Assembly (NCBI GenBank): GCA_036253035.1 | Contig: GCA_036253035.1_4123.1 | Direction: 5' to 3' (one strand) | DNA: 64,000 bases | DNA from: a phage | Shown: in pieces, positions 1 through 64,000 of the stretch | Numbering within the stretch: the stretch's first letter is position 1 | Layout of the letters: each line of letters starts with the position of its first letter | Notes under the pieces: model-generated | The model's database searches: none | Told to the model about the DNA's origin: nothing | Seen by the model: the letters and a program-made list of their open reading frames with translations, nothing else | Program-made: the position numbers and the translations under genes

Positions 1-598
1 ATGAACCACCACGGATAGGATGCCCACTACCACTTAAAAAGCTTTTCGGTGTAATATCAAACTCACCAAATTCAGGATCAATAATAGTTACTTTTGTTTT
101 AGTATTAATATAATTAACTTTGCTATAATCAAAATCAATGTCAGATCTCTTTTCTTTTGCTTCTTTAATAAATTGTTCTGTTGTTTTTGTTTTTTTTACA
201 ATATCGTTATTAATAGATCTAGAAGGATGTCCACAACCACTTAAAAAGTTGGTGGGTGTAATATCGAATTCACCATATTCAGGATCAATAATAGTTACTT
301 TTGTTTTAGTATTAATATAATTAACTTTGCTATAATCAAAATCAATGTCAGATCTCTTTTCTTTTGCTTCTTTAATAAATTGTTCTGTTGTTTTTTTAGA
401 TGAACCACCACGGATAGGATGCCCACTACCACTTAAAAAGTGATTGGGTGTAATATCAAACTCACCAAATTCAGGATCAATAATAGTTACTTTTGTAAAA
501 GAATTAATATAATTAACTTTACTATAATCAAAATCAATGTCAGTTCTTTTTTCTTTTGCGTCTTTAATGAATTGTTCAGTTGTTTTTTTAGCTGGCAT
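1..598 (-). CDS. tandem-repeat protein, N-terminal part (three ~65-aa repeats; gene continues past window start)
   Basis: ATG at 598 on minus strand, frame open to position 1; repeat unit FIKxAKEKRxDIDFDYSKVNYINxxTKVTIIDPEFGEFDITP..SGxGHP; resembles nucleic-acid-binding repeat modules found with phage homing endonucleases, Cys mostly lost. Confidence 0.55.
   Translation of the reverse strand, partial: MPAKKTTEQFIKDAKEKRTDIDFDYSKVNYINSFTKVTIIDPEFGEFDITPNHFLSGSGHPIRGGSSKKTTEQFIKEAKEKRSDIDFDYSKVNYINTKTKVTIIDPEYGEFDITPTNFLSGCGHPSRSINNDIVKKTKTTEQFIKEAKEKRSDIDFDYSKVNYINTKTKVTIIDPEFGEFDITPKSFLSGSGHPIRGGS
1..598. repeat. tandem direct repeat, about 3 copies of a ~200 bp unit (coding)
   Basis: near-identical blocks starting near 1, 205 and 400 (e.g. 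ccacttaaaaag...caggatcaataatagttacttttg recurs). Confidence 0.8.
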
Positions 599-648
599 TA
601 ATTAAAAACTCCAATTTAGTACTTTAATTTCTATAAAATAATTATAGC

Positions 649-676
649 AAAAAAGGCTGACCGAAGTCAACCTTTT
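649..676 (-). terminator. rho-independent terminator (GGUUGAC-UUCG-GUCAGCC hairpin + U tract)
   Basis: plus aaaaaaGGCTGACCGAAGTCAACC; on minus strand perfect stem with one G-U pair, UUCG tetraloop, followed by U run. Confidence 0.8.
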
Positions 677-679
677 CCT

Positions 680-1156
680 TTAATAGTTATTCATTTCATC
701 TTTGATTTGTTCTTCAATTTCATTCAACATATCTTTAACGTACTGTGGACATTCAACATCAGTAAACTTATACCACGTAGGCTTCATCTGGAGCTTCTCA
801 ATCAAACGGTCACGAGACATTTTAATCTCTGACTCCGTTGGTACGTAGTCATTACAAAACTCAGCAGGGAAGCCGCTAATGTCGTTTACTTCAGTGTTTT
901 GAATCTTCATACCACGACGCAGACATTCGTTGACAATATCAATATGACGCTTCTGTAAGTACAGTAACTTGTCGTAGAAAAATGTTACATGACCTGAACC
1001 TAACAGATAAGTACTGTTAATTTTGAAATCACGTACACGCTTACGTGCTTGAACGTGTTTTTGTACAGCACCAAATACACGTGGGAGTTCACGATATTCA
1101 GCCATCAGATGTTGGTCAGCAAGTTCTTTAACGTGTACTAAGTTAATGCGTGTCAT
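680..1156 (-). CDS. denV: endonuclease V, pyrimidine-dimer DNA glycosylase
   Basis: 158 aa; [32 protein letters not shown] closely matches T4 DenV as I recall it; RBS AGAGGA. Confidence 0.85.
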
Positions 1157-1191
1157 GTATTCATCCTCTCGTTTCGATGAAATGATTATAG

Positions 1192-1217
1192 CAAAAAGGG
1201 CTGACCGAAGTCAACCC
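1192..1217 (-). terminator. rho-independent terminator, same conserved hairpin
   Basis: GGGCTGACCGAAGTCAACCC flanked by A run (plus); stop codon of 1211..1624 lies inside hairpin. Confidence 0.75.
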
Positions 1218-1624
1218 TTTTTTCTTTCAATCAAACATAGTCTACCAGAATGTACCATGCGATGGTGATTAGAACAAAGAATCATACACTTTCGAATTTC
1301 ATCTTTGATAGCATCTCGACTTTTACTGAACATAGAACTTGGTGTATGTTCTTTGGTATTAGGGTCAAGATGGTGAAAGTCTAAACATTCTGGATACTTC
1401 ATCATACAAATACTACAACCATAAAATGATTTAACTCTGGTCATGAAATCTTTATTTTTTCTTTTGATTTCTTCAAGTTTTTTGACATCAGTTTTTTTAT
1501 TTCTGGTTTTCTTACTGGTAATATTACTACAACCTTTGCATGTATTTCTATGTTTCCCAGTATCTTTTCTTATACCAAATTCACTAATGTCTTTTTCAAT
1601 ATTACACGTGATACACTTCTTCAT
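1211..1624 (-). CDS. HNH endonuclease with N-terminal Cys-rich zinc finger
   Basis: 137 aa; CxxC..CxxC then DFHHLDP..CSNHHRMVH (HNH-type His/Asn pattern). Confidence 0.65.
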   Translation of the reverse strand: MKKCITCNIEKDISEFGIRKDTGKHRNTCKGCSNITSKKTRNKKTDVKKLEEIKRKNKDFMTRVKSFYGCSICMMKYPECLDFHHLDPNTKEHTPSSMFSKSRDAIKDEIRKCMILCSNHHRMVHSGRLCLIERKKG

Positions 1625-1636
1625 TGTTTAATCCAT

Positions 1637-1924
1637 TTATTCAACAATCCCCAACTTCACAATCTCATACCCGTCCAGATAGCCGTAGGAACACTCAGGT
1701 GTTTCATAAGATGAACCATCATGGATGCCCTGGCATTGACTTTTGGAATTCTCAAGCAATCGTTGTAGTACTGATACGTCATCAAGAACGTAATACAAGT
1801 TAGCATATAGGTCAGTTACAATACAGTACTCCAACATATCAAATGTATCAATCGAAATTTCAACCTTAGCAAATCGTTTCTTTTCTTTATTATACAGTGC
1901 GTACATATTAATCTCCATAATCAA
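1637..1924 (-). CDS. hypothetical protein
   Basis: minus ORF 95 aa tiled with neighbours. Confidence 0.5.
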   Translation of the reverse strand: MIMEINMYALYNKEKKRFAKVEISIDTFDMLEYCIVTDLYANLYYVLDDVSVLQRLLENSKSQCQGIHDGSSYETPECSYGYLDGYEIVKLGIVE

Positions 1925-2324: not shown

Positions 2325-2539
2325 ATTACAAATAAAGACATAGTGGTTTTATGTACGATATCAGCAGTACTGGTCCATCCTCCACCGTGTCCTATTCCAT
2401 TTATGAATAGAACTAAGAACAAGATACCATTTACTACAATAGTACATACTAAGTACACAAATACATTCCATGCAAGTCCAGGGGATACTAAAGTAAATGG
2501 TAAAACTATTAGTAGTATTAGAACTAATAATATTTTCAT
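2288..2539 (-). CDS. small membrane protein
   Basis: 83 aa, two hydrophobic helices (ILLVLILLIVLPF.., GILFLVLFINGIG). Confidence 0.5.
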   Translation of the reverse strand: MKILLVLILLIVLPFTLVSPGLAWNVFVYLVCTIVVNGILFLVLFINGIGHGGGWTSTADIVHKTTMSLFVMWNLFWTWFVFF

Positions 2540-3369: not shown

Positions 3370-3397
3370 ATTATACAGTACTGAATGTGTTTGTCAA
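3370..3397 (-). promoter_or_regulatory. sigma-70-type promoter (TTGACA-16-TATAAT)
   Basis: minus strand GTTGACAaacacattcagtactgTATAATG; spacer contains CAGTACTG. Confidence 0.65.
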
Positions 3398-3398
3398 C

Positions 3399-13991: not shown

Positions 13992-14019
13992 ATTATACAG
14001 TACTACTAATGGTTGTCAA
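13992..14019 (-). promoter_or_regulatory. sigma-70-type promoter (TTGACA-16-TATAAT)
   Basis: minus GTTGACAaccattagtagtactgTATAATG. Confidence 0.6.
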
Positions 14020-16450: not shown

Positions 16451-16662
16451 ACTGCCGCTCCTAATAGGTCGGTAGCTTTCTTCAGTACTACGTCAATTGT
16501 TTCCAGTACTGCACCTTTGTGTTCAATTGATACAATATTATTATAAGTATCAAGGTCCAAGTACTCCATATATTCAGTTTTGAATACACGAACATCAGTA
16601 CTGGTGATTTTAAGATCGCAACCTTTATCCCAGATGACCTGCATCATTTCATTGGTAGTCAT
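16447..16662 (-). CDS. hypothetical protein
   Basis: minus ORF 71 aa. Confidence 0.5.
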   Translation of the reverse strand: MTTNEMMQVIWDKGCDLKITSTDVRVFKTEYMEYLDLDTYNNIVSIEHKGAVLETIDVVLKKATDLLGAAV

Positions 16663-16937
16663 TATTCAACCTTATCATAAACAAGTTTGTGAGTGCTCAG
16701 TACTTTGTTGAGATGACCAGGGCATTCATATACATACAATCGCTCCTGACGTTTTTCCCAACCACCACAGATACGACCTGATTGTGTGCATATTTCATAC
16801 TCGTTAATAAAAGACTTACCTGTGAATGTACAATCCTGACGAACTAAGTCTTTTGCACTAAACCTGCCGTCATCATTACATGCTGTAAGAAACATTGTAC
16901 AGAATACAAAGACAACTGTCAATAGTTTTTTAATCAT
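16662..16937 (-). CDS. lipoprotein
   Basis: 91 aa; lipobox LTAC after signal peptide. Confidence 0.55.
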   Translation of the reverse strand: MIKKLLTVVFVFCTMFLTACNDDGRFSAKDLVRQDCTFTGKSFINEYEICTQSGRICGGWEKRQERLYVYECPGHLNKVLSTHKLVYDKVE

Positions 16938-17951: not shown

Positions 17952-17980
17952 ATTATACTGCTATTATTCAGTACTGTCAA
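17952..17980 (-). promoter_or_regulatory. sigma-70-type promoter (TTGACA-17-TATAAT)
   Basis: minus TTGACAgtactgaataatagcagTATAATG. Confidence 0.65.
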
Positions 17981-18270
17981 TCGATATAAGTACCTTTTTT
18001 AACATCACAGACTTCTTCCATCCAATGTGGATTTTCGTTTTTATCAGTGACGATTTGTTCTGCTTCTTCTTTTGTTTCAGCTAGGACAATACGATCCCCT
18101 TCATCCAAATCACGGATACGATACACTTTTAGATCTTGTTTCTTCTCAAAGATATTACACAGTTCACGTGCTTTTTCTTCATCGCACTTCCCTTCATTAG
18201 CATAAAACCAGATTGCTTTTTTAATAAGGTCACGTTCTTCTTTAGAAAAAGACATAATATTTCCTATCAT
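17977..18270 (-). CDS. hypothetical protein
   Basis: minus ORF 97 aa. Confidence 0.55.
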   Translation of the reverse strand: MIGNIMSFSKEERDLIKKAIWFYANEGKCDEEKARELCNIFEKKQDLKVYRIRDLDEGDRIVLAETKEEAEQIVTDKNENPHWMEEVCDVKKGTYID

Positions 18271-18300: not shown

Positions 18301-18328
18301 ATTATACAGTACTGATATCTTATGTCAA
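18301..18328 (-). promoter_or_regulatory. sigma-70-type promoter, perfect consensus (TTGACA-16-TATAAT)
   Basis: minus TTGACAtaagatatcagtactgTATAATgtttatatcaaa. Confidence 0.75.
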
Positions 18329-19105: not shown

Positions 19106-19693
19106 TGGATATTCCTTAATGGTTAATCATCCATCTCTTCGAGATGTCTGTTCGCTTCTAATACTACGTATTCTACGCGAATGATCAATAACTGTCAAGG
19201 ACTTTTAATATTGACGGGATTTGAGGAAGGGATTTTTCTTCCCCCCACAAGGAGGGAAATTTGACGCTGATGGTATCAGAGCTATTGCATTGAAGATTAC
19301 TCATAACGAGTGCGAAAGCGGGTCATCCTGTTTCTCTCTACTTCAGTTTCATATGACGGTCTACACTTTTAAACATAGTGTATCTTCATTAAGTATCTAT
19401 GCAATCAAATACTTAATGTGAGTACTCAAATTTTGGACGCAACTTTCCTGTACAAAATTCGATAACTCTCCCTTAGATAATTCGTAAGGTGTTATCCTTA
19501 TATGTCTATCAAGGAACCACCAGCTATCCTAACGTGGTTCTTTATACAGCCGCATTGCCGTGAGGGGTTCAAACTATGCCCACATCTAACGGGTTTCTTT
19601 TGCTGTTCGCACTGTCGGACTGCTCAACTGCCCTCTACGTTTTCGAGTGGATCAGGTACATGAATATCATGCCAACAGAATTGTACAAGATAA
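19106..19693 (-). ncRNA. candidate structured non-coding RNA (unclassified)
   Basis: about 590 bp with no credible ORF in a tightly packed genome, locally GC-richer, multiple stem-loops, extended -10 promoter upstream and terminator of sigma gene further upstream. Confidence 0.3.
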
Positions 19694-19755: not shown

Positions 19756-20721
19756 TTAGAAATCTTCGTATTCGTACCCTTTTGCAAGTACTAGCTTCTT
19801 AAGCTTTTGCATAGCTTCACTGTACTTTCGATGTATTGATGAACGGGATTTAACATATTTTCCATTATCATCAACAAAACCATTATCAGCAATCTCACGA
19901 AGCGTTTCAGGTTCATATTCACCTAGACCATGAACACGATGGATAATCTCACGTTCTTTAGTACTCAATTCGTTAGTCAGTTCATTGATAGCATAACGTA
20001 AAGGTGCACGAATACTATCAACATTGAGGTTAAAATCAGAAGCAGGTGAATGAATAATGTCACCTAGTGTACCATCGGTAACACCGTCTAATGGTGCATC
20101 CAGAGAAGTGTATTCGCTTTGAAATAACAAACAGTTATTAACATGCTGAATCTCAATCCCAGTACCCTCTGAGATTATTTCAGGAGTTGGGCGAACACCA
20201 TGTTTACGCATATATTCCTGGCAGAATCTTTTTACTTTGATCTTATGAACACTCATATAACGTGGGAAGTGTACCATATAGTTAGCGTCAGAACTTTCGT
20301 TATAAACTGTCATGTAAATACTAGAAGAAGCATAGGTAATGAACTTAACATTCTTATTAAGATCAAAGGTTTTTAGTGCTCTCATGAACCCCTCAACACC
20401 ATATGAAATCTTATCTTCAAATGGGATATAACAAGTACATTTACTTGCTACATCAATAATAAGTCCATAATTGTAACGAACTAACAGTTCAGTGTTTTTC
20501 TTTACATTGATACCAGCTTGAATATCACGAATTAGATCTTCATTGGAAACATTTGGTGGTCGCTTAAGTGTAATATTATATTTGAAACTGCTTTGTACTT
20601 TACCTTCATTTTCATCTTTATCTTCAACGAAATCTAAGGCTTCTAGTGTGTTGACTTCTTCATTAGCAAAACATTCATCCAGAACTTCTTCGGCAATTGT
20701 ATTTAAATCAAGCTTTTTCAC
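19756..20721 (-). CDS. RNA polymerase sigma factor, sigma-70 family
   Basis: 321 aa, GTG start with AGGAGA RBS; region 2 EGFMRALKTFDLNKNVKFITYA and region 4-like TLREIAD..SRSSIHRKYSEAMQKLKK. Confidence 0.7.
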   Translation of the reverse strand: MKKLDLNTIAEEVLDECFANEEVNTLEALDFVEDKDENEGKVQSSFKYNITLKRPPNVSNEDLIRDIQAGINVKKNTELLVRYNYGLIIDVASKCTCYIPFEDKISYGVEGFMRALKTFDLNKNVKFITYASSSIYMTVYNESSDANYMVHFPRYMSVHKIKVKRFCQEYMRKHGVRPTPEIISEGTGIEIQHVNNCLLFQSEYTSLDAPLDGVTDGTLGDIIHSPASDFNLNVDSIRAPLRYAINELTNELSTKEREIIHRVHGLGEYEPETLREIADNGFVDDNGKYVKSRSSIHRKYSEAMQKLKKLVLAKGYEYEDF

Positions 20722-32483: not shown

Positions 32484-32589
<106 letters not shown>

Positions 32590-32633: not shown

Positions 32634-33151
<518 letters not shown>

Positions 33152-33248: not shown

Positions 33249-33856
<608 letters not shown>

Positions 33857-33907: not shown

Positions 33908-33932
33908 ATTATATCAGTACTGAACTATTTAG

Positions 33933-33936: not shown

Positions 33937-34345
<409 letters not shown>

Positions 34346-38373: not shown

Positions 38374-38410
38374 TAAAAAAATACCCAGTACTTGACTGGG
38401 TATTTACAAA
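38374..38410 (-). terminator. rho-independent terminator
   Basis: ATACCCAGTacttgACTGGGTAT flanked by A run (plus) giving U run on minus transcript. Confidence 0.7.
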
Positions 38411-43566: not shown

Positions 43567-44018
43567 TATTCATCACCTTTTAGTAATTTACAAATTTCAA
43601 TCATATGATAATAACATGTATTCCAAAATTGTCCATTAGTACTTCCAACATCATGCACAGTACTTAGCTGGAACACATATTCATCGTTAAACATATTTTT
43701 CATATCTTCAACGTAACATTCTTTTTTAGAATCATAGTTATATTCTATACTCATTTCTCCATCTGGGTCAAGTGATATTGATGATATGTCTTGAACGAAG
43801 GCGGGGTTTGTTGGAGAAAAGTATAACGTAAGTTGATAGCAGTCTGGGTCAGTTTCATAACAATACACAATATTATAATTCCCACCCGTGGTTGGGCTGT
43901 ATTTAAATTCTGTTTTATTAGTATTTGACATGCTATACCCAAGGTTCTTTATCTCTTGGAGATGTAATAATATTTTATGTAAAGTTCCTAAAACATGAAT
44001 CAAATTATCAATTTTCAT
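43566..44018 (-). CDS. EExxFQxS-motif family protein
   Basis: 150 aa; DEYVFQLSTVHDVG. Confidence 0.6.
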   Translation of the reverse strand: MKIDNLIHVLGTLHKILLHLQEIKNLGYSMSNTNKTEFKYSPTTGGNYNIVYCYETDPDCYQLTLYFSPTNPAFVQDISSISLDPDGEMSIEYNYDSKKECYVEDMKNMFNDEYVFQLSTVHDVGSTNGQFWNTCYYHMIEICKLLKGDE

Positions 44019-44557
44019 TTACGTTCCTTTAAAAAGTTCAGTTTAAAAGTTTTACCAAATTCCATTGTAGCTTTACCCAGATTGTTAATATTTTCTTTCA
44101 ACATTTCTTGCATCTTCCTAATACTTTCATTCCAGGCTTCTTCTTCTTTGCGGAGGACTGGTCGCAATCGTTCCTGAATATCGTTAAAACGTGTATTGAG
44201 TTCAACCAATGATTCATATGTGAAATCTTTCATATCGATGATAGTACTACGTTGAAAGAATTCTTCTTCAGACAAATTACTTAAAATGATTTTATCACGA
44301 CCAATAGATAATGTCAATTCATCATCTTTATTTTTTTTAATTACAATACTAACAGGTGTTTTTAATGTAATGCAAATATCATGATTATTAAATGTTTCAG
44401 TTTGGTTTGACATTCTGAATTGAAGTTTCCCAGATAAAGCATGTACTGGTGATGGTTTCTTTTTACCAGTAATAACATCTTCCCATGAATCGAGAATATT
44501 ATTAATAATTTTAACATAAGGAATTGGCATATATGCACCTATGAAAAATCCACGCAA
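44015..44557 (-). CDS. EExxFQxS-motif family protein (with extended C-terminus)
   Basis: 180 aa; SEEEFFQRSTIIDM. Confidence 0.6.
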   Translation of the reverse strand: MRGFFIGAYMPIPYVKIINNILDSWEDVITGKKKPSPVHALSGKLQFRMSNQTETFNNHDICITLKTPVSIVIKKNKDDELTLSIGRDKIILSNLSEEEFFQRSTIIDMKDFTYESLVELNTRFNDIQERLRPVLRKEEEAWNESIRKMQEMLKENINNLGKATMEFGKTFKLNFLKERK

Positions 44558-44572
44558 TGCGTGGATTTGTAA

Positions 44573-45103
44573 TTATTCAAGTATAGTAATTTCAATTAAA
44601 CGAATTTCGATAAACTCGTTTTCAGTTTCCCATGACGTGCCAAATTTCTTTTCAAGTTCAGATTTCACATCACTTTTAAATTTTCCCATAGTATTAGGAA
44701 TAATTTGTTTGGTTAATTTGTCGTAACCACAATAAAACATAGGTTTCTCCCTTCGAGATATTAGCTGAACAAAATCTTTTGGATATGCAGGTATGTTATG
44801 CATCACTTCATGAATACACTCAGTACTTGAATCTTGTACTTTGTACATTACATTAAGTTTACCTCTGAAATTTGCGGTCATATCAACAATAGTTCCTTTA
44901 CCCGATTTAAGTAAAGTTCCATTCTTTGAATGAGAGCAATAAAATACCTCATCACCAATATTAGGATAATACAAATTAAATTCTAATTCAGATTTTACAG
45001 CCAGCCGTTTGAAACTTTCTGTACGTTTTATATAAGTTTGGTATTTGTTTATGTTCAAAAGAATATCTCTCTTAGTAAATGTGATATAACTGGCATAGTC
45101 CAT
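44573..45103 (-). CDS. hypothetical protein
   Basis: minus ORF 176 aa; 5' end overlaps methyltransferase gene. Confidence 0.5.
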   Translation of the reverse strand: MDYASYITFTKRDILLNINKYQTYIKRTESFKRLAVKSELEFNLYYPNIGDEVFYCSHSKNGTLLKSGKGTIVDMTANFRGKLNVMYKVQDSSTECIHEVMHNIPAYPKDFVQLISRREKPMFYCGYDKLTKQIIPNTMGKFKSDVKSELEKKFGTSWETENEFIEIRLIEITILE

Positions 45104-45915
45104 CCATTCCCAAGCATTTTGTATGCTTGTGTCTTACTAGACACTTTAAAGAAATCTTCAGGAACACCCTGTAATTTACAACATTCTACTACACTTAAGT
45201 GTCTATAGTCAATATTTCTTTTGCCATTCTCTAATAGATATTGACGACTGATCACTGGGTCACGAAACACCAATTGTCGTCTGGATTTATTAAAGTACTG
45301 GTTACAATCACCACCTTTAAAATAGTTAGCATCTATACAGTACGAAGCGGTTCTGTCAGTGTACCAACCATCTTCAATAATATCTTGAAGTTTAGGTGCA
45401 TTGGATAATGCAGGTGGTATAAAAAGCTTATCAGTACTGTACCAGTAATATCTCTGCCTGAAGTGAGGCGTATAATGCTGGGAGTTTATCAGTACTGGCG
45501 TGATTCCTAAAATACTATTAATGTATTCTTTGAAATCTTCCTTCATTTTAACATTTTCAAACAGAAATTTCAAGTTAGGATTGAGACTTTTGATATGATC
45601 AAAAATTTCAACCATTACTAAAAATAACTGCCCACGTATATCATTTAAACCACCCTGTTTACCTGCAACTGACCAGGCTTGGCATGGGAAACCACCCATT
45701 AATAAATCTATTTTGTCCCACTCAATATCCCATTCTCTCCACTTAGTTACATCACCCAATTGGATAATATCAGGAAAGTTAGATTGAGATTCAGCTATTG
45801 CGTACTTATCAATTTCGGATGAATAATATTTTTCAACTGGGATACCCGCATCTTGCAATGCCATATATCCCACACTCATTCCATTAAAAAGAGAAAGTAC
45901 TCGGATAGGTTTCAT
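45055..45915 (-). CDS. DNA (cytosine-5)-methyltransferase
   Basis: 286 aa; motif IV GGFPCQAWS, ENV, C-terminal QAYKMLGNGWTMPV. Confidence 0.75.
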   Translation of the reverse strand: MKPIRVLSLFNGMSVGYMALQDAGIPVEKYYSSEIDKYAIAESQSNFPDIIQLGDVTKWREWDIEWDKIDLLMGGFPCQAWSVAGKQGGLNDIRGQLFLVMVEIFDHIKSLNPNLKFLFENVKMKEDFKEYINSILGITPVLINSQHYTPHFRQRYYWYSTDKLFIPPALSNAPKLQDIIEDGWYTDRTASYCIDANYFKGGDCNQYFNKSRRQLVFRDPVISRQYLLENGKRNIDYRHLSVVECCKLQGVPEDFFKVSSKTQAYKMLGNGWTMPVISHLLREIFF

Positions 45916-50829: not shown

Positions 50830-51248
50830 ACTGGATAAGCCTTTAAAAATTGTTTAAGAACTCCAAACTTAGATGAATCGTAATCGTATTGATAGTTAAG
50901 CTCTCGCTTATCATTCATACGATACACCATATGAAAATTTGGATAACCAATTCTAACAGGTTTTTTAGGATTAGCAAGTAAAATTGCCCATTCTTTTACA
51001 GGAAATACGTTTTCAGACAGCATTTTGATATTTGTTTCAAAATACTTCATGGCTTGCTTTCCGTGCTTGTAATCTTCTTCACTAATCTCTTGACAATCAA
51101 TTCTATGTGTTTCGGTATCTAACACCCATTGTTGATCTTCGGTATATAAATCAATTACATCATCAATAGTATAACTATCAGGTAAATCATAAAATACCCA
51201 ATGAGATAAACCAGAACTTACACCAATTCGAATTTTAAAGAACTTCAT
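50826..51248 (-). CDS. hypothetical protein
   Basis: minus ORF 140 aa. Confidence 0.55.
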   Translation of the reverse strand: MKFFKIRIGVSSGLSHWVFYDLPDSYTIDDVIDLYTEDQQWVLDTETHRIDCQEISEEDYKHGKQAMKYFETNIKMLSENVFPVKEWAILLANPKKPVRIGYPNFHMVYRMNDKRELNYQYDYDSSKFGVLKQFLKAYPV

Positions 51249-51406
51249 TCTTTATCACCTTTTACATAATTATAACACACGACACAGTGAATTACAAGAA
51301 GAATTATTTCCACAATATTAAGAGACAATACATGACTCTGCGGTGTGAAAAGTGCCAATAACAACATTATAGCAGGTATTGTGAATATTTTCCAAGTTTT
51401 TTTCAT
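51245..51406 (-). CDS. small membrane protein
   Basis: track ORF 51245..51550; ATG 51406 gives MKKTWKIFTIPAIMLLLALF.. Confidence 0.4.
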   Translation of the reverse strand: MKKTWKIFTIPAIMLLLALFTPQSHVLSLNIVEIILLVIHCVVCYNYVKGDKE

Positions 51407-51407
51407 T

Positions 51408-51638
51408 TTATTCCTTTGTATATGCATATGGTAAAAATAAAACCTCTGCATTAGGAATGCATTGTGCCAATCCTTCAACAATAGATTTGTTTTTATTACA
51501 TTGCCAAACTTTAGTAATTTTATGTCTAAATACTTTTTTATCAACGACAATCCAGTACATGTCCATTTTAACAGTACTGTTATCAGATGGTGTTAGTAAA
51601 GTATCGATGTCATATGTATCAAAGATTTTGTCGTTCAT
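51408..51638 (-). CDS. hypothetical protein
   Basis: minus ORF 76 aa. Confidence 0.5.
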   Translation of the reverse strand: MNDKIFDTYDIDTLLTPSDNSTVKMDMYWIVVDKKVFRHKITKVWQCNKNKSIVEGLAQCIPNAEVLFLPYAYTKE

Positions 51639-51900
51639 ATAATCTCCTAATAAAATATTCTCGATTCTCTCTTATATACCCAGATACACAGTTAGTTGTG
51701 GCTTGGTTAGTGAATGAAATCTCACTATTGGACACGCCATTTGCATCACACAAAGGACATATTCCCATGTACTTGGGGGTCGGGTAGGTGTCCAATTTGT
51801 ATTTTCCATTACATACCATGTACTGCTGTGGCAATACATCTAATATTATTTCATATTCTTCATCAAACACCTTGAAGCATACCCAACATTTACCCATCAT
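51619..51900 (-). CDS. Cys-rich putative zinc-binding protein
   Basis: 93 aa; CWVC..CPLC. Confidence 0.5.
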   Translation of the reverse strand: MMGKCWVCFKVFDEEYEIILDVLPQQYMVCNGKYKLDTYPTPKYMGICPLCDANGVSNSEISFTNQATTNCVSGYIRENREYFIRRLYERQNL

Positions 51901-52381
51901 AGTTTTCCTTTAACACAGTTCTTATATATTCGAATGTTTTAACAAACCAATCATGTTCGTCGGATACATCTACAACTTTACCACCATATACATAGTAATG
52001 GTAAAAAGGCAACTTGCTTTTTCTTAATCTTTCGGCTAACTCTGGATTTTGAATTATTTTAGCACAAATAGCATCTTGAATAATAGAAATACAATCATCC
52101 GTCATTTCAATTCGATCATGCATATATTTGTTAGCGGCTGCTTTTGCTGCTGCACCAGATACTTTTCTAAGGTCATCATGTTTTTGCCCAGTTAAAAACC
52201 AAAAGTAAAATGTTTCAACTGAAGGGAACCAACCATATGGTTCAAGTGTGAAGCTATGCGAAGAAAAGTTAGATAGATCTCTACCTAACTTCGTTCTGGC
52301 TTTACTATAAATGTTAATATGTCGGTATCCATCATCAGTAGGGTCAATGAAGTTAAATGACTCTTCTGGGAATTCAAACAT
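51890..52381 (-). CDS. NADAR/YbiA-like (DUF1768-like) protein
   Basis: 163 aa; LSNFSSHSF, IIQDAICAKIIQNPELAERLRKS resemble YbiA-family motifs as I recall them. Confidence 0.45.
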   Translation of the reverse strand: MFEFPEESFNFIDPTDDGYRHINIYSKARTKLGRDLSNFSSHSFTLEPYGWFPSVETFYFWFLTGQKHDDLRKVSGAAAKAAANKYMHDRIEMTDDCISIIQDAICAKIIQNPELAERLRKSKLPFYHYYVYGGKVVDVSDEHDWFVKTFEYIRTVLKENYDG

Positions 52382-52383
52382 AA

Positions 52384-52737
52384 TTATTCTTCTTCTCCTG
52401 AAGGTGTTCCACGTAGTTTATCAAAATCAACCCAAATACCATGCTGGTTTTTAAATCGACATTTCTCATAGTACCAACTATAGTCTGTTTCAACACCTTG
52501 TGAAATAGAACGCACACTACAATCATACATATTATATAAATGTTCCCTGACAATATATGTATTAATCAGTACAACGAATAATACAATAATACCACAGATT
52601 TTAGGATGGTCCATAATCAAGTCAAGTACTGAACTAGTTTCAGAACTATCAATCTTACTTCTACAAATAGCAACAATTTTAAGAACAGCGAATGATACCA
52701 GTAATGAAATTACAATAACACTTAAATAAATTAGCAT
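52384..52737 (-). CDS. membrane protein
   Basis: 117 aa, N-terminal TM helices. Confidence 0.55.
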   Translation of the reverse strand: MLIYLSVIVISLLVSFAVLKIVAICRSKIDSSETSSVLDLIMDHPKICGIIVLFVVLINTYIVREHLYNMYDCSVRSISQGVETDYSWYYEKCRFKNQHGIWVDFDKLRGTPSGEEE

Positions 52738-52740
52738 AAA

Positions 52741-53322
52741 TTACACTCCTACACCAAAACGTAAAATAATATTATTAACAAACACTAAATCAAAAGGTGA
52801 CTTTGGTTCAGATACTGAGTACTGAAATGATTCTGCTGCGAAATTTTCTCTATTATACCATGTTTCAGAATTTATTAGCATTTTTTTATCACCAATCGTC
52901 ACTGAATGTAATGGAACATTTGAAGAAGAATTTATTGAATATGCATTAAGATTACCGTTTTCATCTAATGTGATACTAAGATAATATTTTTTCTCAATAT
53001 CAGGAATAAGTTCTTTTGTATACGAATAGATTGAATCAACCCATTCATCATGTACATTTTCTGCACCAATCAGGTGTCCGAATGATAAATTACGTTTAAC
53101 TGGCTTTGATCCTGGTCGAGTTAGAATGAATTGTTTTGTTAAGTAAAAATTATTATGTTTTACTTCAATATTAACATTTTTAAAATTCACCACTTTATCA
53201 TATACATTTCGAAAAACTGTTATATCCCAAGTACTAATTTCATCCATAATACTTATCACCAGTTCTTCTAGTTCTTGTATAAATGGCAAATCATCTTGAT
53301 GAAATCTAGTCATGGTTTTCAT
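52741..53322 (-). CDS. hypothetical protein
   Basis: minus ORF 193 aa. Confidence 0.6.
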   Translation of the reverse strand: MKTMTRFHQDDLPFIQELEELVISIMDEISTWDITVFRNVYDKVVNFKNVNIEVKHNNFYLTKQFILTRPGSKPVKRNLSFGHLIGAENVHDEWVDSIYSYTKELIPDIEKKYYLSITLDENGNLNAYSINSSSNVPLHSVTIGDKKMLINSETWYNRENFAAESFQYSVSEPKSPFDLVFVNNIILRFGVGV

Positions 53323-53923
53323 ATACCTTTTTCAAATTCATAATTTCAAGAATGCTGTATTCTTTATCACCAATCAAATCTTCAGTGAATGCAGTGGGGT
53401 CAGCATCGCTATACAACTTACCATTGATGATAACACAACCATTACTAAGATACAATGCACTCATGATCTGTTGTCCTTCTTTCACATTTTGTGCTAGACC
53501 TGTATTTGTTACTACAAATCCATTTGTTGCTAATGATGATGTTAGTTCTGACCATTCAACTGATATTAAGTCGCGATAGTCCTTAGATACTTTTATATTC
53601 ACAATACAAGCAACTCGTTTAATAGGTGGAGTGCTAATCGTGTACATTTGTGGTTGTTGGTAATTAGAGTTGTATGTTTGTGGTGTTTTAACAGCAGTTC
53701 CTGAATTTTGAGTTGATTTGGTAATTACTGGTTCTACACTGGGGACTGTTGTTCTTAGTGATATAATACGTCCAGTTTCATCCAATTTAAGGACTAAACG
53801 ATGAGTTTCATCCTCAGAGTAATAGGGAAACAAGCCACCGGAATTCATATTTTGAAGCATTTTAATTAATTCATAAGTATTTTTTAAAAACATAGTACAC
53901 CCCATAGAAAAGGGGGAGTACAA
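53306..53923 (-). CDS. hypothetical protein
   Basis: minus ORF 205 aa. Confidence 0.6.
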   Translation of the reverse strand: MYSPFSMGCTMFLKNTYELIKMLQNMNSGGLFPYYSEDETHRLVLKLDETGRIISLRTTVPSVEPVITKSTQNSGTAVKTPQTYNSNYQQPQMYTISTPPIKRVACIVNIKVSKDYRDLISVEWSELTSSLATNGFVVTNTGLAQNVKEGQQIMSALYLSNGCVIINGKLYSDADPTAFTEDLIGDKEYSILEIMNLKKVYENHD

Positions 53924-53941
53924 AGTACTCCCAACATTTAA

Positions 53942-54496
53942 TTATAGTTTAATTGATTCTTGAATACCAGTATCCATTGCTTTCTTGGTACGTGTATCAG
54001 ATACTACTGTACAAAGGTGTTCAATATTTTCACTTGGAAACGTATTCGAATCAAGAATTTTGGAATTCCAGAAGCCTTTGCGGAACTTAGCATAATCAGT
54101 ACACTGGTCAATTTTCATTTTCTGAAGATTGTTGAACTTTGTACGTCCTGTTTCAATTGTCACCATCAATTCCTGATAAATTTTAGGATCAAGATTTGGA
54201 ACCTGTTGTTGAATCTGTGACATTACAAACTTCTGGTCAACACCTTCACGCCCTTTAAAGTATGATTCAATCGTTTCTTTCAACGCATCTTTATACTTAT
54301 CGGCTACTTGAACCTTATCTTGAATAGTAAGAGTATAATTGCTAAGTTGACTTTCTGATGCATCATAATACTTTTTAATGTTTCCTTCAAACTCAACTGC
54401 ACGATCATGTGCACCAACATACATACTAATAGAACCAAACACCATTAGTACGATAACTACCAAAATACCAATTAACGCAAGGAGTTTACCATTCAT
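53942..54496 (-). CDS. LemA-like membrane-anchored protein (tentative)
   Basis: 184 aa; single N-terminal TM then helical domain; size and layout match LemA family; ATGA overlap with upstream gene. Confidence 0.45.
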   Translation of the reverse strand: MNGKLLALIGILVVIVLMVFGSISMYVGAHDRAVEFEGNIKKYYDASESQLSNYTLTIQDKVQVADKYKDALKETIESYFKGREGVDQKFVMSQIQQQVPNLDPKIYQELMVTIETGRTKFNNLQKMKIDQCTDYAKFRKGFWNSKILDSNTFPSENIEHLCTVVSDTRTKKAMDTGIQESIKL

Positions 54497-55587
54497 AAAT
54501 CGTTATCCCTCATATAAAGGCCAATGAAAATAGACAGAATCAACAACACAATGGAAGCACCGATAAGAACATCTTTTCTAGGTTCCATTTTTACTGACAA
54601 GTACTCAAACTCTTTATTAGAGAGTCTCTCAAAATGTTTGTCAATATTATGTACTTCTTTAACTAGTAAGTCAAGAGTTAATTTTTCATTTAATGCATCA
54701 ATACGCATCTTTGCATGTAACTCTTCATTCTTCATTCCTTGTGCAAATGATGTACTGTAAAATTTTACAACGTTACCATCATTGTCAATACCAAAGAACA
54801 TAATAACATCATTCTTCTTACCACCACGCCACGATGCAAGGGTAGCATCAACAAAATCAACATCTTTGTAATCATAAACTAGTACTTGGATGTTTACCTG
54901 CTTTCGTGCACCCATCGTTTTTAGCTCATTACGAAGGTATTCATCGTAACCATCAACGTTGTAATTTGTAGTGTTAATTACGTGATGTGTTTTGTAATAA
55001 TCAACTACACTTGGGTATTCTGGAATAGTACTAAGATACTTTTCATCATACATGTTGTGTAGTTCTTCAGGACTAAACAATGAGTTCTTATCAGCAAATA
55101 GATAGTTGATATATGAACTCTCTGCTGCGGCATAGTCACCAATAATAACTTGCTGCCAACGTGGTGGTGTCATTGTACCTTGACGGTTCACACGTTCAAT
55201 CTCAAACTCACCTACTGTACTTTTCACATACCAATCAACTTCATATGAGTAATCAAAAACCTTATATGATTCACACTCACGATGTGATTTACCTTTACTA
55301 TCATATCGCGTATGGCACTTCTCATGCCATGTATAGTGCTTACATGAACTAGATTGTGTGCAATATTCTTTGTGGCTGTATTTTGAAGTTACTTGACCAT
55401 TCAGAATCTCAACATCATAAAGCTGGCTATAGTTGATTGCGTATGAAATACCAAGAACAAGAGCCGCACCAACCAGACAACAAGCAATATGAATCAATAG
55501 TTCTTTAGTACTGATATGCTTATCGTACATGTATTTCATAACGAATACAACGATAAGAGCAGGTATTAACAGAATAATGAAATTCAT
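54493..55587 (-). CDS. membrane protein with N- and C-terminal TM helices and Cys-rich loop
   Basis: 364 aa; translationally coupled to LemA-like gene. Confidence 0.6.
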   Translation of the reverse strand: MNFIILLIPALIVVFVMKYMYDKHISTKELLIHIACCLVGAALVLGISYAINYSQLYDVEILNGQVTSKYSHKEYCTQSSSCKHYTWHEKCHTRYDSKGKSHRECESYKVFDYSYEVDWYVKSTVGEFEIERVNRQGTMTPPRWQQVIIGDYAAAESSYINYLFADKNSLFSPEELHNMYDEKYLSTIPEYPSVVDYYKTHHVINTTNYNVDGYDEYLRNELKTMGARKQVNIQVLVYDYKDVDFVDATLASWRGGKKNDVIMFFGIDNDGNVVKFYSTSFAQGMKNEELHAKMRIDALNEKLTLDLLVKEVHNIDKHFERLSNKEFEYLSVKMEPRKDVLIGASIVLLILSIFIGLYMRDNDL

Positions 55588-55590
55588 GTA

Positions 55591-56280
55591 TTAATCCATT
55601 TTAAGCTTGTTTAGACAGAATGAAATCTGGATTGCTTCACGTGCTGCATCAAACAGTGGGTGATGTAACTCCAACCCATTAATCCCACACGTATTTGCAT
55701 ATGTGATAAATTTATCCAACTGTACCGAAACGATTTCATCCATTTCAATACGAGCTTCTTCATTCAATAAACGTTTCAATGTGCGTGCATTTTCAGGTGC
55801 ATCATACTTCCACAACTCACCAGCGTTCATTAGTTTTAAATGGTTTGCTTGTAAAATACTACAATCGAAGTTACATCCGTTGCCCCAGACTGAATGAGGA
55901 ACTTCTTCACCATAATCATTGTAACGTAATTCTTTCCAGAAATCAACAATACTACTGTATGCAAAAAATCGTCGTGATTGACCATTCGGTCCATACAGTT
56001 CAGGTGCTTTGAGTTTCATAGTACTGGCAACTTCAGAATATGCATTAGAGTATTCTTTCTGACATGTATTCATCCAAAAATCCATTGCACCTGCGTCTGA
56101 TTTTAAACCAGCAGCAACTTGATCCTGGTATGGTAATTTAATATATAAGAACTGACGAATGTCATTTTCAGGTTTACTTGGAACTACTACTGCTGCGTAA
56201 TTTGGGATAATAATATCATAACCGGAAAGTTCAGGTGTTCCAAGAGCTTCAATATCAACACTAATATGACGACGTTTCAT
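55591..56280 (-). CDS. DEDD-family 3'-5' exonuclease (DexA-like)
   Basis: 229 aa; N-terminal ISVDIEALG exo I motif, C-terminal HHPLFDA. Confidence 0.6.
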   Translation of the reverse strand: MKRRHISVDIEALGTPELSGYDIIIPNYAAVVVPSKPENDIRQFLYIKLPYQDQVAAGLKSDAGAMDFWMNTCQKEYSNAYSEVASTMKLKAPELYGPNGQSRRFFAYSSIVDFWKELRYNDYGEEVPHSVWGNGCNFDCSILQANHLKLMNAGELWKYDAPENARTLKRLLNEEARIEMDEIVSVQLDKFITYANTCGINGLELHHPLFDAAREAIQISFCLNKLKMD

Positions 56281-62576: not shown

Positions 62577-62836
62577 TCGGCTGAATTATATAATAAAGCC
62601 GTGAAAAGTTCTTCTGTCATTTCCAATTGATTTAATAAAAAATTAAAAGAATTTGCCTTATTTTTAATCCCAGTACTTTCAGCTTGGGCTGATGCAACTA
62701 ATAAAACTTTAAACATATCATGTGAAACTTCATATACATATTTGGTATTTTTTCTATCTTCAAACATGAATCTTCCGTTTTTAGATACTAATGTTACATC
62801 CTTGAAACTAAATTTTCCATCATCAGTTATCATCAA
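62564..62836 (-). CDS. hypothetical protein
   Basis: minus ORF 90 aa. Confidence 0.5.
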   Translation of the reverse strand: MMITDDGKFSFKDVTLVSKNGRFMFEDRKNTKYVYEVSHDMFKVLLVASAQAESTGIKNKANSFNFLLNQLEMTEELFTALLYNSADWIL

Positions 62837-62889
62837 AATCTGTCCAAATAAAAAGCCCAGATATTCATCCGAGCTTTAATTATATTTTA

Positions 62890-63216
62890 TTAACGACCAA
62901 AGGTTAGCATTTTAGTTCGTGGATCTTCATCTGAAACTAAACTAACTGCGGCTGGGTAATCAACCAAGTTTAATTCAATACCATCAACTTCAATAGTTCT
63001 TGACCATCGACCATGATCAATTAAAATCCATTGACCTTCTTTAATATCAGTAATGTCTTCGCCTACAGAATAAACTTTTGCCCAGCGAGAACGAATACCT
63101 CTAATTTTACCGTCATCGTTTGTTAAAACGATACCACCTGCTGTTTTGCGTTCACCATGTTCCAGTTCAGTTACCAGTACTTTACCTTTACATGCAGTCA
63201 TTACTTTATTAGTCAT
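62890..63216 (-). CDS. GroES-like co-chaperonin (Cpn10 family)
   Basis: 108 aa; KTAGGIVLT mobile-loop-adjacent motif, size and beta-rich profile. Confidence 0.55.
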   Translation of the reverse strand: MTNKVMTACKGKVLVTELEHGERKTAGGIVLTNDDGKIRGIRSRWAKVYSVGEDITDIKEGQWILIDHGRWSRTIEVDGIELNLVDYPAAVSLVSDEDPRTKMLTFGR

Positions 63217-63224
63217 TTAATATA

Positions 63225-63569
63225 TTACTCCTGATCTTTGGTTCTAGCTCGACGTGGTGCTTTCTTCTCTTCAGAAACCTCAGCTTCTTGTTCTTCGGGC
63301 TTAACTTCAAAACTCTCATCATCCCATACTTCATCCGTACCATGTTCAGTACTATGAAGTTGATGTTCAGGGATATAATCAGGAATTTGCATTTCTCGTT
63401 CTTTTTCTTGAATCAACTCTTCACGAGTTTTAATAATTGTTCCACCTGAACCGATTTTATCACCACGTGCGTTTAAATTAGCATTACCTAATGCTACCTG
63501 ATGTTGATTTTGGTACTTGAGCATATCCATGTCAATTGTTGTACCACGATAAGTTGTATGTTTAGACAT
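63225..63569 (-). CDS. hypothetical acidic protein
   Basis: minus ORF 114 aa. Confidence 0.55.
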   Translation of the reverse strand: MSKHTTYRGTTIDMDMLKYQNQHQVALGNANLNARGDKIGSGGTIIKTREELIQEKEREMQIPDYIPEHQLHSTEHGTDEVWDDESFEVKPEEQEAEVSEEKKAPRRARTKDQE

Positions 63570-63614
63570 ATCAAAATCCTTTTATTGTATGTGTGATATA
63601 AGCCTACAATAAAC

Positions 63615-63625
63615 ATTATATCACA
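63615..63625 (-). promoter_or_regulatory. extended -10 promoter element (TGTGATATAAT)
   Basis: minus catgTGtgaTATAATgttt; inverted copy of the same motif 16 bp away. Confidence 0.4.
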
Positions 63626-63632
63626 TGTTTTT

Positions 63633-64000
63633 CTACCATTTCAAAAATTCGTTAACATCAAGTTCGTACTTCAATGAATCTACCATATGTAGTCCAATCA
63701 AAAACAAACAGTATGATGCAACAGAGCTTCCACGACCTAGACCCCAAAAGATCTCATTTTCTTCCATATAATCAACAAGCCATATCATACATCTTAATAG
63801 CTTTGTCATATTATAATATTCATATAAATCTAGTTCATACTCAACACGCTTTCGTGCTTCATCTGATGTACATTTTTGTAAGAAAAAGTCACGTAGATTT
63901 ATATTATCGTATACTGGATCATAACGCCAAAGTTCATGATTTTTATCATGCTCGATAGTATAATCCAGCATACGTTGTTCTAAGCCAAATTTTTTACAGT
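63633..64000 (-). CDS. DnaE (family-C polymerase) N-terminal-region homolog, C-terminal part of an ORF that starts beyond window end
   Basis: frame open to 64000; ..RVEYELDLYEYYNM..IWLVDYMEE..GLGRGSSVASYCL..ELDVNEFL parallels E. coli DnaE ..RLETELQVINQMGF..YFLIVMEF..GPGRGSGAGSLVAYAL..DLLFERFL as I recall it; ORF stops where PDFDVDF would follow. Confidence 0.5.
   Translation of the reverse strand, partial: CKKFGLEQRMLDYTIEHDKNHELWRYDPVYDNINLRDFFLQKCTSDEARKRVEYELDLYEYYNMTKLLRCMIWLVDYMEENEIFWGLGRGSSVASYCLFLIGLHMVDSLKYELDVNEFLKW

Follow-up and report, generated by a model that had tools for sequence, protein, structure and literature searches.

A clade-specific, genome-wide over-represented palindrome, AGTACT, in RaK2-like jumbo phages of Enterobacterales

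Introduction

Highly iterated words such as HIP1, the uptake sequences, and Chi are, to our knowledge, known from bacterial chromosomes and not from phage genomes. Here we describe a word of this kind, the palindromic hexamer AGTACT, in a stretch of 64,000 nucleotides of phage DNA (contig GCA_036253035.1_4123.1 of the NCBI GenBank assembly GCA_036253035.1; hereafter the window, meaning the whole stretch) and in the genomes of its relatives. The closest described analogue is HIP1 (GCGATCGC) of cyanobacteria, a short exact palindrome that is present in many-fold excess at about one copy per gene. Like HIP1, AGTACT lies inside open reading frames (ORFs) as well as between them, is conserved beyond controls, is non-randomly spaced, and is restricted to a lineage (PMC5861425; bioRxiv 10.64898/2026.06.24.733823). 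The function of HIP1 has been obscure for decades and is debated (PMC5861425; bioRxiv 10.64898/2026.06.24.733823). The two words also differ, as HIP1 is an 8-mer of cellular chromosomes and AGTACT a 6-mer of a virus. HIP1 coincides in part with the targets of two orphan methylases (GATC and CGATCG), whereas neither of the activities predicted for these phages, CpG and Dam-type, has such an overlap with AGTACT. HIP1 shows a periodicity of 10–90 kb, whereas the evidence from the phages concerns short-range evenness only, and the phage word is in addition wired into early promoters.

Other described systems resemble AGTACT in part. The uptake sequences DUS (Neisseria) and USS (Pasteurellaceae) and Chi are likewise genome-wide “self” words, far denser in their owner than in foreign DNA, which occur in coding DNA in all frames, affect peptide composition, and are spaced more evenly than random. 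Each is read by a dedicated protein machine, and readers are known (ComP, RecBCD). However, these words are non-palindromic, and Chi is orientation-dependent, whereas the phage word is palindromic and its owner is a lytic phage. Multi-operator repressors (P1 C1 and the phiC31 “conons”) and the baculovirus hr/IE-1 system provide another likeness, as one viral dimeric protein acts on many dispersed copies, and copies lying over -35/-10 elements act as operators. These systems comprise tens of sites of 14–30 bp, mostly intergenic, in contrast to approximately 900 six-base sites, mostly in genes, in the phage. AGTACT is also identical to the recognition site of ScaI/Eco255I, and the exactness of the enriched hexamer recalls the stringency of an enzyme; however, phages usually lose sites of this type, whereas AGTACT is multiplied eight-fold, and no gene for a cognate enzyme was found in the window. 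Finally, the SlmA-binding sequence of Escherichia coli (GTGAGTACTCAC) has the same central six bases, the hosts encode SlmA, and infection produces filaments, but the essential flanking bases (G1, T2, and the purine at position 3) are absent from the phage word, and none of the 162 sites in the window qualifies. In the literature searched for AGTACT in phages, and in the genome papers of RaK2, CBB, and Sharanji, the enrichment of AGTACT is not mentioned.

Materials and Methods

The window was placed by megablast in an Asteriusvirus jumbo phage with 99.1% identity to the E. coli phages vB_EcoM_G17 (G17) and Sharanji (10 kb compared), where position 30000 of the window corresponds to position 75932 of G17. 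Other relatives are PBECO4, 121Q, and slurp01. The window has a G+C content of 33.3%, and nearly all of its ORFs are on the minus strand. Gene calls are ORF-based and were made in this analysis (142 genes, 88% coding). Whole-genome figures refer to EC22.5-2, an unannotated, 99%-identical relative (350 kb), rather than to the window's own record, and host density refers to one sample of E. coli K-12 DNA (50 kb, positions 1,000,001–1,050,000). Conservation was assessed in alignments of homologous regions with hexamers of the same composition as controls, and metagenomic relatives were collected by scanning IMG/VR with a tail-sheath profile.

Results

Over-representation of AGTACT

AGTACT occurs 162 times in the window (2.53 per kb), compared to 21.5 occurrences expected from base composition. 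The initial annotation had estimated by eye approximately 120 sites against approximately 20 expected; the expectation and the enrichment were correct, and the number of sites was too low. Dinucleotide shuffles gave 17.7 ± 3.9 sites (maximum of 28 among 100), and Markov models of order 1, 2, and 3 predicted 17.3, 32.8, and 61.4 sites, respectively (62 ± 8 when order 3 was simulated). The order-4 expectation, 126, is too high, since AGTAC and GTACT owe their enrichment solely to AGTACT itself. Within genes, where 141 sites were observed, shuffling of synonymous codons left 37.8 ± 5.3 sites (maximum of 59 among 300) and shuffling of codon order left 20.9 ± 4.5. The excess therefore survives the comparison with shuffled controls by which the initial annotation had proposed to check it, and the frequency does not fall within expectation once dinucleotide and codon usage are controlled. 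Every reading frame holds 3.5–5 times the mean of the synonymous-codon shuffle. An artefact of composition or codon usage is ruled out by the dinucleotide, Markov order 1–3, synonymous-codon, and codon-order controls.

Among all hexamers of the window, AGTACT is the most over-represented by a wide margin, and it also ranks first in EC22.5-2. The second-ranked palindrome, TGTACA, reaches 54 copies versus 21.5 expected. Enrichment (7.5-fold) is confined to the exact hexamer, with all 18 one-mismatch variants at 0.4–2.0 times their expectation, and the variant AGTACA (38 copies) and its complement TGTACT (40 copies) show no strand bias in the window. The EC22.5-2 genome contains 913 copies versus 119 expected (7.7-fold). 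Its regional density is 6.3 per kb in the repeat/early region; the early-middle regions have 2.9 and 2.6 per kb, and the rest of the genome has 1.7 per kb, still approximately five times the expectation. The E. coli K-12 sample contains only 3 copies (0.06 per kb) versus 11.6 expected, an approximately 4-fold under-representation, so that this sample of host DNA is approximately 40 times sparser in AGTACT than phage DNA (1.7–6.3 per kb).

Other palindromes behave differently in these genomes. Nearly all of the remaining G/C-containing ones are purged to an extreme degree, with 26 of the 64 palindromic hexamers absent from the window and 23 of the 64 absent from all 350 kb of EC22.5-2, and GCGC does not occur in the window (47 expected). 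Such avoidance does not extend to AGTACT, which is over-represented 7.5–7.7-fold.

Distribution among Related Phages

The enrichment extends to the genera Asteriusvirus, Alcyoneusvirus, Mimasvirus, and Eneladusvirus. RaK2 has 114 copies in 50 kb versus 16.6 expected, GAP32 and CBB have 114 and 112 copies in the 50 kb sampled from each, and Serratia phage BF has 51 copies in 25 kb versus 8.3 expected. Overall, RaK2, GAP32, CBB, BF, 121Q, and three environmental contigs are enriched 5–7.5-fold, and the excess in the other genera covers unrelated regions that include replication, structural, and early genes. No excess was found in the samples of PA5oct (3 in 50 kb versus 16.6 expected), Atu_ph07 (1 in 25 kb), XacN1 (0 in 25 kb), T4 (2 in 12 kb), or phi92 (0 in 20 kb versus 6.6 expected). 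The samples of T4 and phi92 exclude a general trait of coliphages or T4-like phages.

Among the IMG/VR loci, all nine with at least 66% tail-sheath identity are enriched (5.3–7.5-fold), whereas the approximately 50 loci with 50% identity or less all lie at 0–2.3 times the expectation. Across relatives, the enrichment is therefore all-or-none and is consistent with a single origin in this clade. A switch to another motif in the remoter relatives was considered and rejected, as no comparable substitute palindrome was found in PA5oct or in the approximately 50 IMG/VR loci. The Hef-like homing-endonuclease genes of RaK2 carry AGTACT at a normal density (2.9–3.5 per kb). The idea that they are recent arrivals free of the motif was therefore discarded; either these genes did not enter the clade recently or sites build up fast.

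Conservation and Spacing of Sites

AGTACT was retained far more often than control hexamers of equal composition in each of three comparisons, namely GAP32 with CBB (69% versus 41%, P = 2e-8), CBB with BF (43–49% versus 27%, P 0.001–0.01), and the window with phage A4 (57% versus 35%, P = 7e-5). These alignments indicate that individual sites are under purifying selection. Sites nevertheless turn over, as 33 sites of the window are absent from A4 and 23 sites of A4 are absent from the window in another alignment of the two.

AGTACT is spaced more evenly than expected at random. In 1-kb bins, its counts show under-dispersion in the window (variance/mean 0.53, P = 0.0007) and in a pool of 287 kb from five phages (variance/mean 0.70, P = 4e-5). 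On a short scale, pairs of sites 19–24 bp apart are in excess, with 30 pairs versus 13.6 expected in the whole EC22.5-2 genome and 26 versus 10.6 in the pooled loci, among which homologous loci are not independent. AGTACT is accordingly a clade-specific, genome-wide, exact word, kept by selection on sites and on coverage at approximately one copy per 400 bp over approximately 350 kb.

Coding Context and Flanking Bases

The density of AGTACT is nearly the same in ORFs (2.50 per kb, n = 141) and outside them (2.78 per kb, n = 21), and positions within the genes of the window are uniform. As the initial annotation had observed, the many copies in coding sequence fall in varied frames, with 63 in the frame AGT-ACT and 32 and 46 in the other two. 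In the first of these frames, AGTACT spells 63 of the 103 Ser-Thr dipeptides, compared to 15 expected from codon usage, and the dipeptides themselves are in excess (Ser-Thr 103 versus 72; Val-Leu 160 versus 111). The upkeep of AGTACT thus costs codon choice and, mildly, protein sequence. AGT accounts for 32% of serine codons, largely from in-frame AGT-ACT sites, and the tRNA-Ser(ACU) of the window (Table 1) may compensate for the AGT codons that such sites force.

Beyond the core, only the immediately flanking bases are informative on average (50% of sites have C at -1 and 43% have G at +1), with a weak T/A preference farther out. The preference is reverse-complement symmetric, with the consensus ttCAGTACTGaa. 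The flanks vary by genus (C…G in Asteriusvirus and Alcyoneusvirus, A at -1 in Mimasvirus and Eneladusvirus), whereas the core is constant. A seemingly strong avoidance of G at -1 and C at +1 proved merely mild given the NAGT/ACTN background. The view that AGTACT is embedded in longer palindromes is weakly true, since palindromy extends past the core by at least 1 bp at 53 sites versus 45 expected, which is near chance, and by at least 3 bp at four sites. The longest such form, of 16 bp (Table 1), is possibly a full optimal site. Longer palindromes or hairpins as the basis of the enrichment were rejected, with extension at chance and terminator stems holding just two sites.

Early Promoters and the Terminal Repeat

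The window contains 35 near-consensus promoters (TTGACA-N16-18-TATAAT), all on the minus strand. AGTACT lies in the spacer of five of these, ending 1–2 nt before TATAAT, and is absent from the other 30; three further sites overlap a -35 hexamer. The initial annotation had reported the extended form CAGTACTG directly upstream of the -10 hexamer in many consensus promoters. Three of the four examples lie exactly where it placed them (3376-3383, 18307-18314, and 34324-34331), and the fourth is at 33915-33922, not 33914-33921. All four examples, which have the form TTGACA-N16/17-TATAAT, end 1–2 nt before TATAAT on the minus strand, but the arrangement is limited to the five of 35 strong promoters. 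Across the window, 18 sites lie 1–2 nt from a -10 hexamer versus approximately 5 at other gaps, so a fixed distance to the -10 hexamer holds for a subset of sites only. In total, sigma-70 promoters account for approximately 10 of the 162 sites. The sites are not confined to regions upstream of genes, as 141 of 162 (87%) are intragenic, and a promoter element was rejected as the general cause.

A tighter link to promoters was found in the terminal repeat. Based on gene-by-gene identity (G17_00614 onward equals G17_00001 onward), the direct terminal repeat of G17 spans 1–20,668 and 350,150–370,817, and a terminal repeat of 20,668 bp was determined for Sharanji by PhageTerm (PMC11895373). This repeat is the region richest in both AGTACT and sigma-70 promoters. 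Within positions 1–25 kb of G17, 40 of 160 sites lie 1–2 nt upstream of a TATAAT-like hexamer versus 0–8 at other offsets, the intergenic density reaches 10.8 per kb, and a site lies at most 120 nt upstream of 53 of the 69 genes. Within 1–50 kb, a site occupies the fixed position in 18 of 31 strong promoters, many of which also have a second copy that abuts the -35 hexamer 20–22 bp from the first (e.g., AGTACTtgcaattagttttcAGTACTgTATAAT). The recurring architecture of the repeat is AGTACT-(0-1)-[-35]-(8-9)-AGTACT-(1-2)-[-10], which resembles an operator in that a palindrome covers the -35 hexamer or spacer and is often paired on one helical face. Among the regions sampled, this recruitment of AGTACT to early promoters is specific to the Asteriusviruses. 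Three promoter classes have been described for CBB and GAP32, none of which contains AGTACT (PMC5259590).

AGTACT-Free Blocks and a Polar Variant

Two blocks of EC22.5-2 lack AGTACT, at 50,892–55,891 and at 58,324–66,610. The first is a tandem array of genes for paralogues of approximately 70 amino acids (aa). Its counterpart in G17 (approximately 344.9–350.28 kb) reaches as far as the inner edge of the terminal repeat on the right, at which point AGTACT density jumps to approximately 6 per kb. The second block, of 8.3 kb, comprises approximately 22 unannotated genes and is conserved in all Asteriusviruses (G17 334,747–342,469). On its coding strand there are 47 copies of AGTAC, of which 45 continue with A, and GTACT is present only once. 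The AGTAC copies are spread over all frames (18/18/11) and mostly have the C…G flanks seen elsewhere (CAGTACAG). AGTACA is present at approximately 15 times its compositional expectation in this block, from which the palindrome is excluded.

Candidate Readers

The initial annotation had linked AGTACT to a C5-methyltransferase. The gene is present where it had been placed and matches the expected family (Table 1), but a tie to AGTACT was not borne out. Homologues of the enzyme are found in CBB (76% identity), K64-1 (64%), and phi92 (51%). RaK2 DNA carries m5CpG according to bisulfite sequencing (PMC3622015), and AGTACT contains no CpG. The sole other annotated methylase of RaK2 is a 172-aa phage Dam-family protein (PF05869), and neither an m5CpG site nor a Dam-family site lies within AGTACT. 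Moreover, phi92 encodes the 51%-identical homologue yet has no AGTACT in 20 kb. The C5-methyltransferase is therefore unlikely to be the reader, because it appears to be a CpG-type enzyme, as judged by the RaK2 homologue (64% identity via K64-1).

The cytosine methyltransferase coding sequence of phage A4 (1899 nt) corresponds to three ORFs of the window on the minus strand (44015-44557, 44573-45103, and 45055-45915, together 44015-45915). The second and third of these overlap out of frame, and a difference in annotation or a frameshift is possible.

Among host proteins, SlmA was considered as the reader. In its site, G1, T2, A4, and G5 are essential, position 3 is a purine, position 6 is lax, and the core is AGTACT (PMC3020112). 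None of the 162 sites in the window matches GTRAGTACTYAC, with five matching on one flank, and the SBS-like 12-mer GTRAGYRCTYAC was not found anywhere in the window. SlmA was rejected, as its flank rules fail at 162 of 162 sites. An SBS-like near-match, TTGAGTACTCAC, is located at 19421, approximately 330 bp downstream of the sigma gene.

Searches within the phage also yielded no reader. A relaxed Pfam search of the genes downstream of AGTACT promoters found none, nor did tblastn searches of the window proteins against the sampled loci of the other genera. The proteins that the scans of the window did identify include a sigma-70 family protein (Table 1), a clamp loader, endonuclease V, and TelA.

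Discussion

A Proposed Clade-Encoded Reader of Duplex DNA

A functional site for a DNA-binding or DNA-modifying activity of the phage had been proposed in the initial annotation. The methyltransferase named there does not fit, but a phage-specific reader is the most reasonable reading because the enrichment survives the controls, selection maintains it, and it is limited to one clade. We tentatively regard AGTACT as a “highly iterated palindrome” that selection maintains in the RaK2-like jumbo phages of Enterobacterales and that is served by a dimeric, clade-encoded reader of duplex DNA, and would give this account somewhat less than an even chance. A two-fold symmetric factor, most likely a dimeric DNA-binding protein, would recognize AGTACT on duplex DNA with a preferred full site of approximately ttCAGTACTGaa. 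The approximately 900 dispersed copies would concentrate the factor on phage rather than host DNA and may serve as a self-mark or an organiser. The Asteriusviruses may then have co-opted such sites as operators in the immediate-early region of the terminal repeat, where one copy would fill the -35/-10 spacer and a second, often abutting the -35 hexamer 20–22 bp away, would lie on the same face of the helix. As the factor accumulates, it would bind these operators and switch off the early promoters that depend on the host sigma-70.

Several observations weigh against a dimeric reader of this kind. No candidate for a DNA-binding reader was found by Pfam/NCBIfam searches of 134 window proteins or by PHROGs searches of the 10 ORFs adjacent to the sigma gene, and the HTH_37 regulator located beside the sigma gene of CBB has no homologue in the sampled Asteriusvirus DNA. 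The fixed placement in promoters, save for occasional overlaps with TTGACAGTACT, is absent from the parts of RaK2, GAP32, and CBB that were sampled, and for this reason cannot be the ancestral function. The evenness of spacing is significant by itself only in the window and in one CBB locus. The near-absolute stringency for six bases is more typical of restriction/modification enzymes than of transcription factors. Finally, a strictly symmetric reader of duplex DNA does not predict polar AGTACA in the AGTACT-free 8.3 kb block. None of the explanations considered predicts this block, and it keeps open one-strand sensing or a need to avoid cutting or binding at full palindromes there.

AGTACT may also act as a self/non-self barcode, with a clade-encoded reader that exploits the approximately 40-fold density gap in a lytic jumbo phage without hypermodified bases; we consider this somewhat unlikely. 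The features of a self-tag are present, as the word is denser in the phage's own DNA (1.7–6.3 versus 0.06 per kb) and coverage is even (variance/mean 0.70). Such a reader would direct protection, replication/recombination, compaction, or transcription control to phage DNA only, and the word would be the functional counterpart of the modified cytosine of T4 or of bacterial uptake sequences. The barcode would have a grammar consisting of ultra-dense operator pairs in the repeat, two excluded blocks beside the repeat, and a polar AGTACA dialect in one of them.

Alternative Explanations

The stringency would suit the main rival, a site-specific enzyme encoded by the clade. It could be a methyltransferase or another modifier of bases, or a nickase or endonuclease of the restriction type, and its marks or breaks would serve the choice of strand in repair, replication that depends on recombination, the loading of clamps for late transcription, or the processing of concatemers at the terminal repeat. 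Exact-hexamer specificity resembles that of restriction enzymes, and the word is the ScaI/Eco255I site itself. Protection by modification is suggested because AGTACT is tolerated and multiplied while other palindromes are purged (23 of 64 palindromic hexamers from 350 kb). The density is highest in the terminal repeat, the one-stranded AGTACA of the 8.3 kb block could restrict events there to a single strand, and HIP1, as the closest analogue, is recognized by orphan methylases (bioRxiv 10.64898/2026.06.24.733823). We nevertheless hold an enzyme to be unlikely, as the two annotated methylases of RaK2 (C5/m5CpG, PMC3622015; 172-aa Dam-family) fit no 6-bp site lacking CpG and GATC, the 134 window proteins include neither an endonuclease of the ScaI type nor a further methylase, methylation alone leaves the over-representation unexplained, and phage and host Dam sites are not so enriched. 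The polar block would be easier to accommodate if the word were read on one strand, in single-stranded DNA as the site of a T4-type gp61 primase or in mRNA as AGUAC(U/A) for an RNA-binding protein or endoribonuclease, with the palindrome being the form that works on both strands. The 45 coding-strand AGTACA copies of that block, in all frames with C…G flanks and no AGTACT, are what such a reader could produce. An even spacing of a few hundred bp suits regular priming, homologues of gp61/gp41 are encoded by the clade, and, extrapolating from T4, the hexamer could represent a pentamer primer plus one cryptic base. One-strand reading is made quite unlikely by flanks that are reverse-complement symmetric, as duplex recognition would give, by the lack of strand bias in the window (AGTACA 38, TGTACT 40), and by fixed -35/-10 spacer positions upstream of transcription starts, which are hard to square with the RNA level. 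Known primases, moreover, read three bases, and PA5oct also has a primase yet lacks such a motif.

A factor of the Enterobacterales hosts, such as SlmA, might instead read the sites, which the phage would multiply in order to hijack or titrate it and, for example, block cell division. The enriched phages all infect Enterobacterales and their relatives on Pseudomonas, Agrobacterium, and Xanthomonas are unenriched, but phylogeny and host range are confounded in this comparison, and the unrelated coliphages T4 and phi92 are unenriched as well. AGTACT is the core of the SlmA site (PMC3020112), is approximately 4-fold under-represented in the E. coli sample, and Sharanji, the 99% relative, causes filamentation on infection (PMC11895373); the SlmA rules nevertheless fail in the window (0 of 162 sites for GTRAGTACTYAC, no GTRAGYRCTYAC), where position -1 prefers C or A and positions -3 and -2 are uninformative, and we rate a host reader as very unlikely. 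Little probability is likewise left to a neutral drive without function, by which a bias of mismatch repair or of gene conversion in favour of AGTACT, or else a bias in mutation or in codon pairs, would have spread the word. Very-short-patch repair is a precedent for word bias, the one-mismatch neighbours of AGTACT are mildly raised (up to 2-fold), and even the Hef-like genes of RaK2 carry the usual 2.9–3.5 sites per kb. A drive of this kind does not readily yield conservation above same-composition hexamers in three independent comparisons, spacing more even than random, or two conserved blocks (5 and 8 kb) without sites in the same genome. None of the neighbour words is depleted as a source would be, a codon-preserving shuffle yields 38 sites versus the 141 observed, the dipeptides Ser-Thr (103 versus 72) and Val-Leu (160 versus 111) are raised, and the 7–14-fold effect far exceeds known repair biases. 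Next to no weight falls on the idea that the word is part of an early promoter consensus (spacer or extended -10) and that its count reflects many promoters, which is refuted as a general explanation. It would account for the fixed position in five consensus promoters of the window and in 18 of 31 in G17 1–50 kb, and with a 17-nt spacer the TG of the site occupies the extended -10 position. However, 141 of 162 sites lie uniformly in ORFs, 30 of 35 strong window promoters have no site, the equally enriched RaK2, GAP32, and CBB show no positional link to -10 hexamers, and the promoter classes of CBB and GAP32 are without the word (PMC5259590).

A lytic phage with approximately 900 selected copies of a hexamer would be a small, fast, and genetically tractable system for word function, and what such words do has been an open question for three decades in the case of HIP1. 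The clade-encoded reader preferred here implies a sequence reader among the more than 80% of genes of these jumbo phages that are unannotated, and suggests how an unmodified phage genome could be distinguished from host DNA. It would also explain the skewed use of Ser/Thr codons and the presence of tRNA-Ser(ACU). Either the sites are protected, or host restriction of the ScaI type would pose a major threat to these phages. AGTACT may further serve as a simple metagenomic marker for this clade.

Features of the Window and Minor Observations

Individual sites and related genes of the window are listed in Table 1. The promoter driving the tRNA cluster has paired AGTACT sites.

Table 1. Positions of AGTACT sites, extended palindromes, and associated genes in the 64,000-nucleotide window.
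Feature	Position	Strand	Remarks
Dispersed AGTACT copies	1..64000	.	162 copies: 141 inside ORFs (all three frames), 21 intergenic; flanks weakly symmetric, ttCAGTACTGaa
Spacer site, promoter TTGACAaacacattcAGTACTgTATAAT	3377..3382	-	56 nt upstream of ATG
Spacer site, promoter TTGACAaccattagtAGTACTgTATAAT	13999..14004	-	
Spacer site, promoter TTGACAtaagatatcAGTACTgTATAAT	18308..18313	-	Upstream of ORF 17977-18270
Spacer site, promoter TTGACTaaatagttcAGTACTgaTATAAT	33916..33921	-	TG of the site at the extended -10 position
Spacer site, promoter TTGATTaaatagttcAGTACTgTATAAT	34325..34330	-	-35 is TTGATT; 39 nt upstream of ATG
Site that overlaps the -35 hexamer (TTGACAGTACT) of the promoter next downstream	17970..17975	-	
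Site pair 20 bp apart bracketing the -35-like TTGACT (AGTACTtgactaaatagttcAGTACTgataaaat)	33456..33481	-	Just upstream of the tRNA-Ser(ACU)/Met/Asn cluster
tRNA-Ser, anticodon ACU (reads AGU)	33346..33437	-	Unusual anticodon
Perfect palindrome of 16 bp, TATTCAGTACTGAATA	32515..32530	.	Longest extended form; 19 nt upstream of the -10-like hexamer TACAAT
Perfect palindrome of 14 bp, ATTCAGTACTGAAT	32637..32650	.	Intergenic
AGTACT atop a terminator-like hairpin (acccagtcaAGTACTgggtattttttt)	38387..38392	-	
AGTACT in the stem of hairpin GGGAGTACtttGTACTCCC	53924..53929	-	
Densest local cluster	16484..16704	.	Five sites in 220 bp in small ORFs, including the 21-bp pair 16484/16505
Further intragenic pairs 19–24 bp apart	4872/4891, 8225/8249, 10733/10755, 34379/34399, 43638/43659, 50467/50489		
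Sigma-70 family protein (regions 2, 3, 4)	19756-20721	-	35% identical to the CBB sigma
C5 cytosine DNA methyltransferase, 286 aa	45055..45915	-	Pfam PF00145, E=7.5e-38; complete small enzyme

Two further features were observed. A terminator hairpin that forms the spacer of a consensus promoter (TTGACTtcggtcagccctttttgcTATAAT) is repeated at approximately 670, 1214, and 12246 on the minus strand of the window and at 43913, 45327, and 46609 in G17. The E. coli Chi sequence (GCTGGTGG) is strongly enriched and orientation-biased in the terminal-repeat region, with 11 copies of CCACCAGC and 3 of GCTGGTGG in G17 1–50 kb (approximately 0.2 expected for each). The whole EC22.5-2 genome contains 28 copies of Chi versus 2.2 expected, and two copies are located in the window (3867 and 19517).

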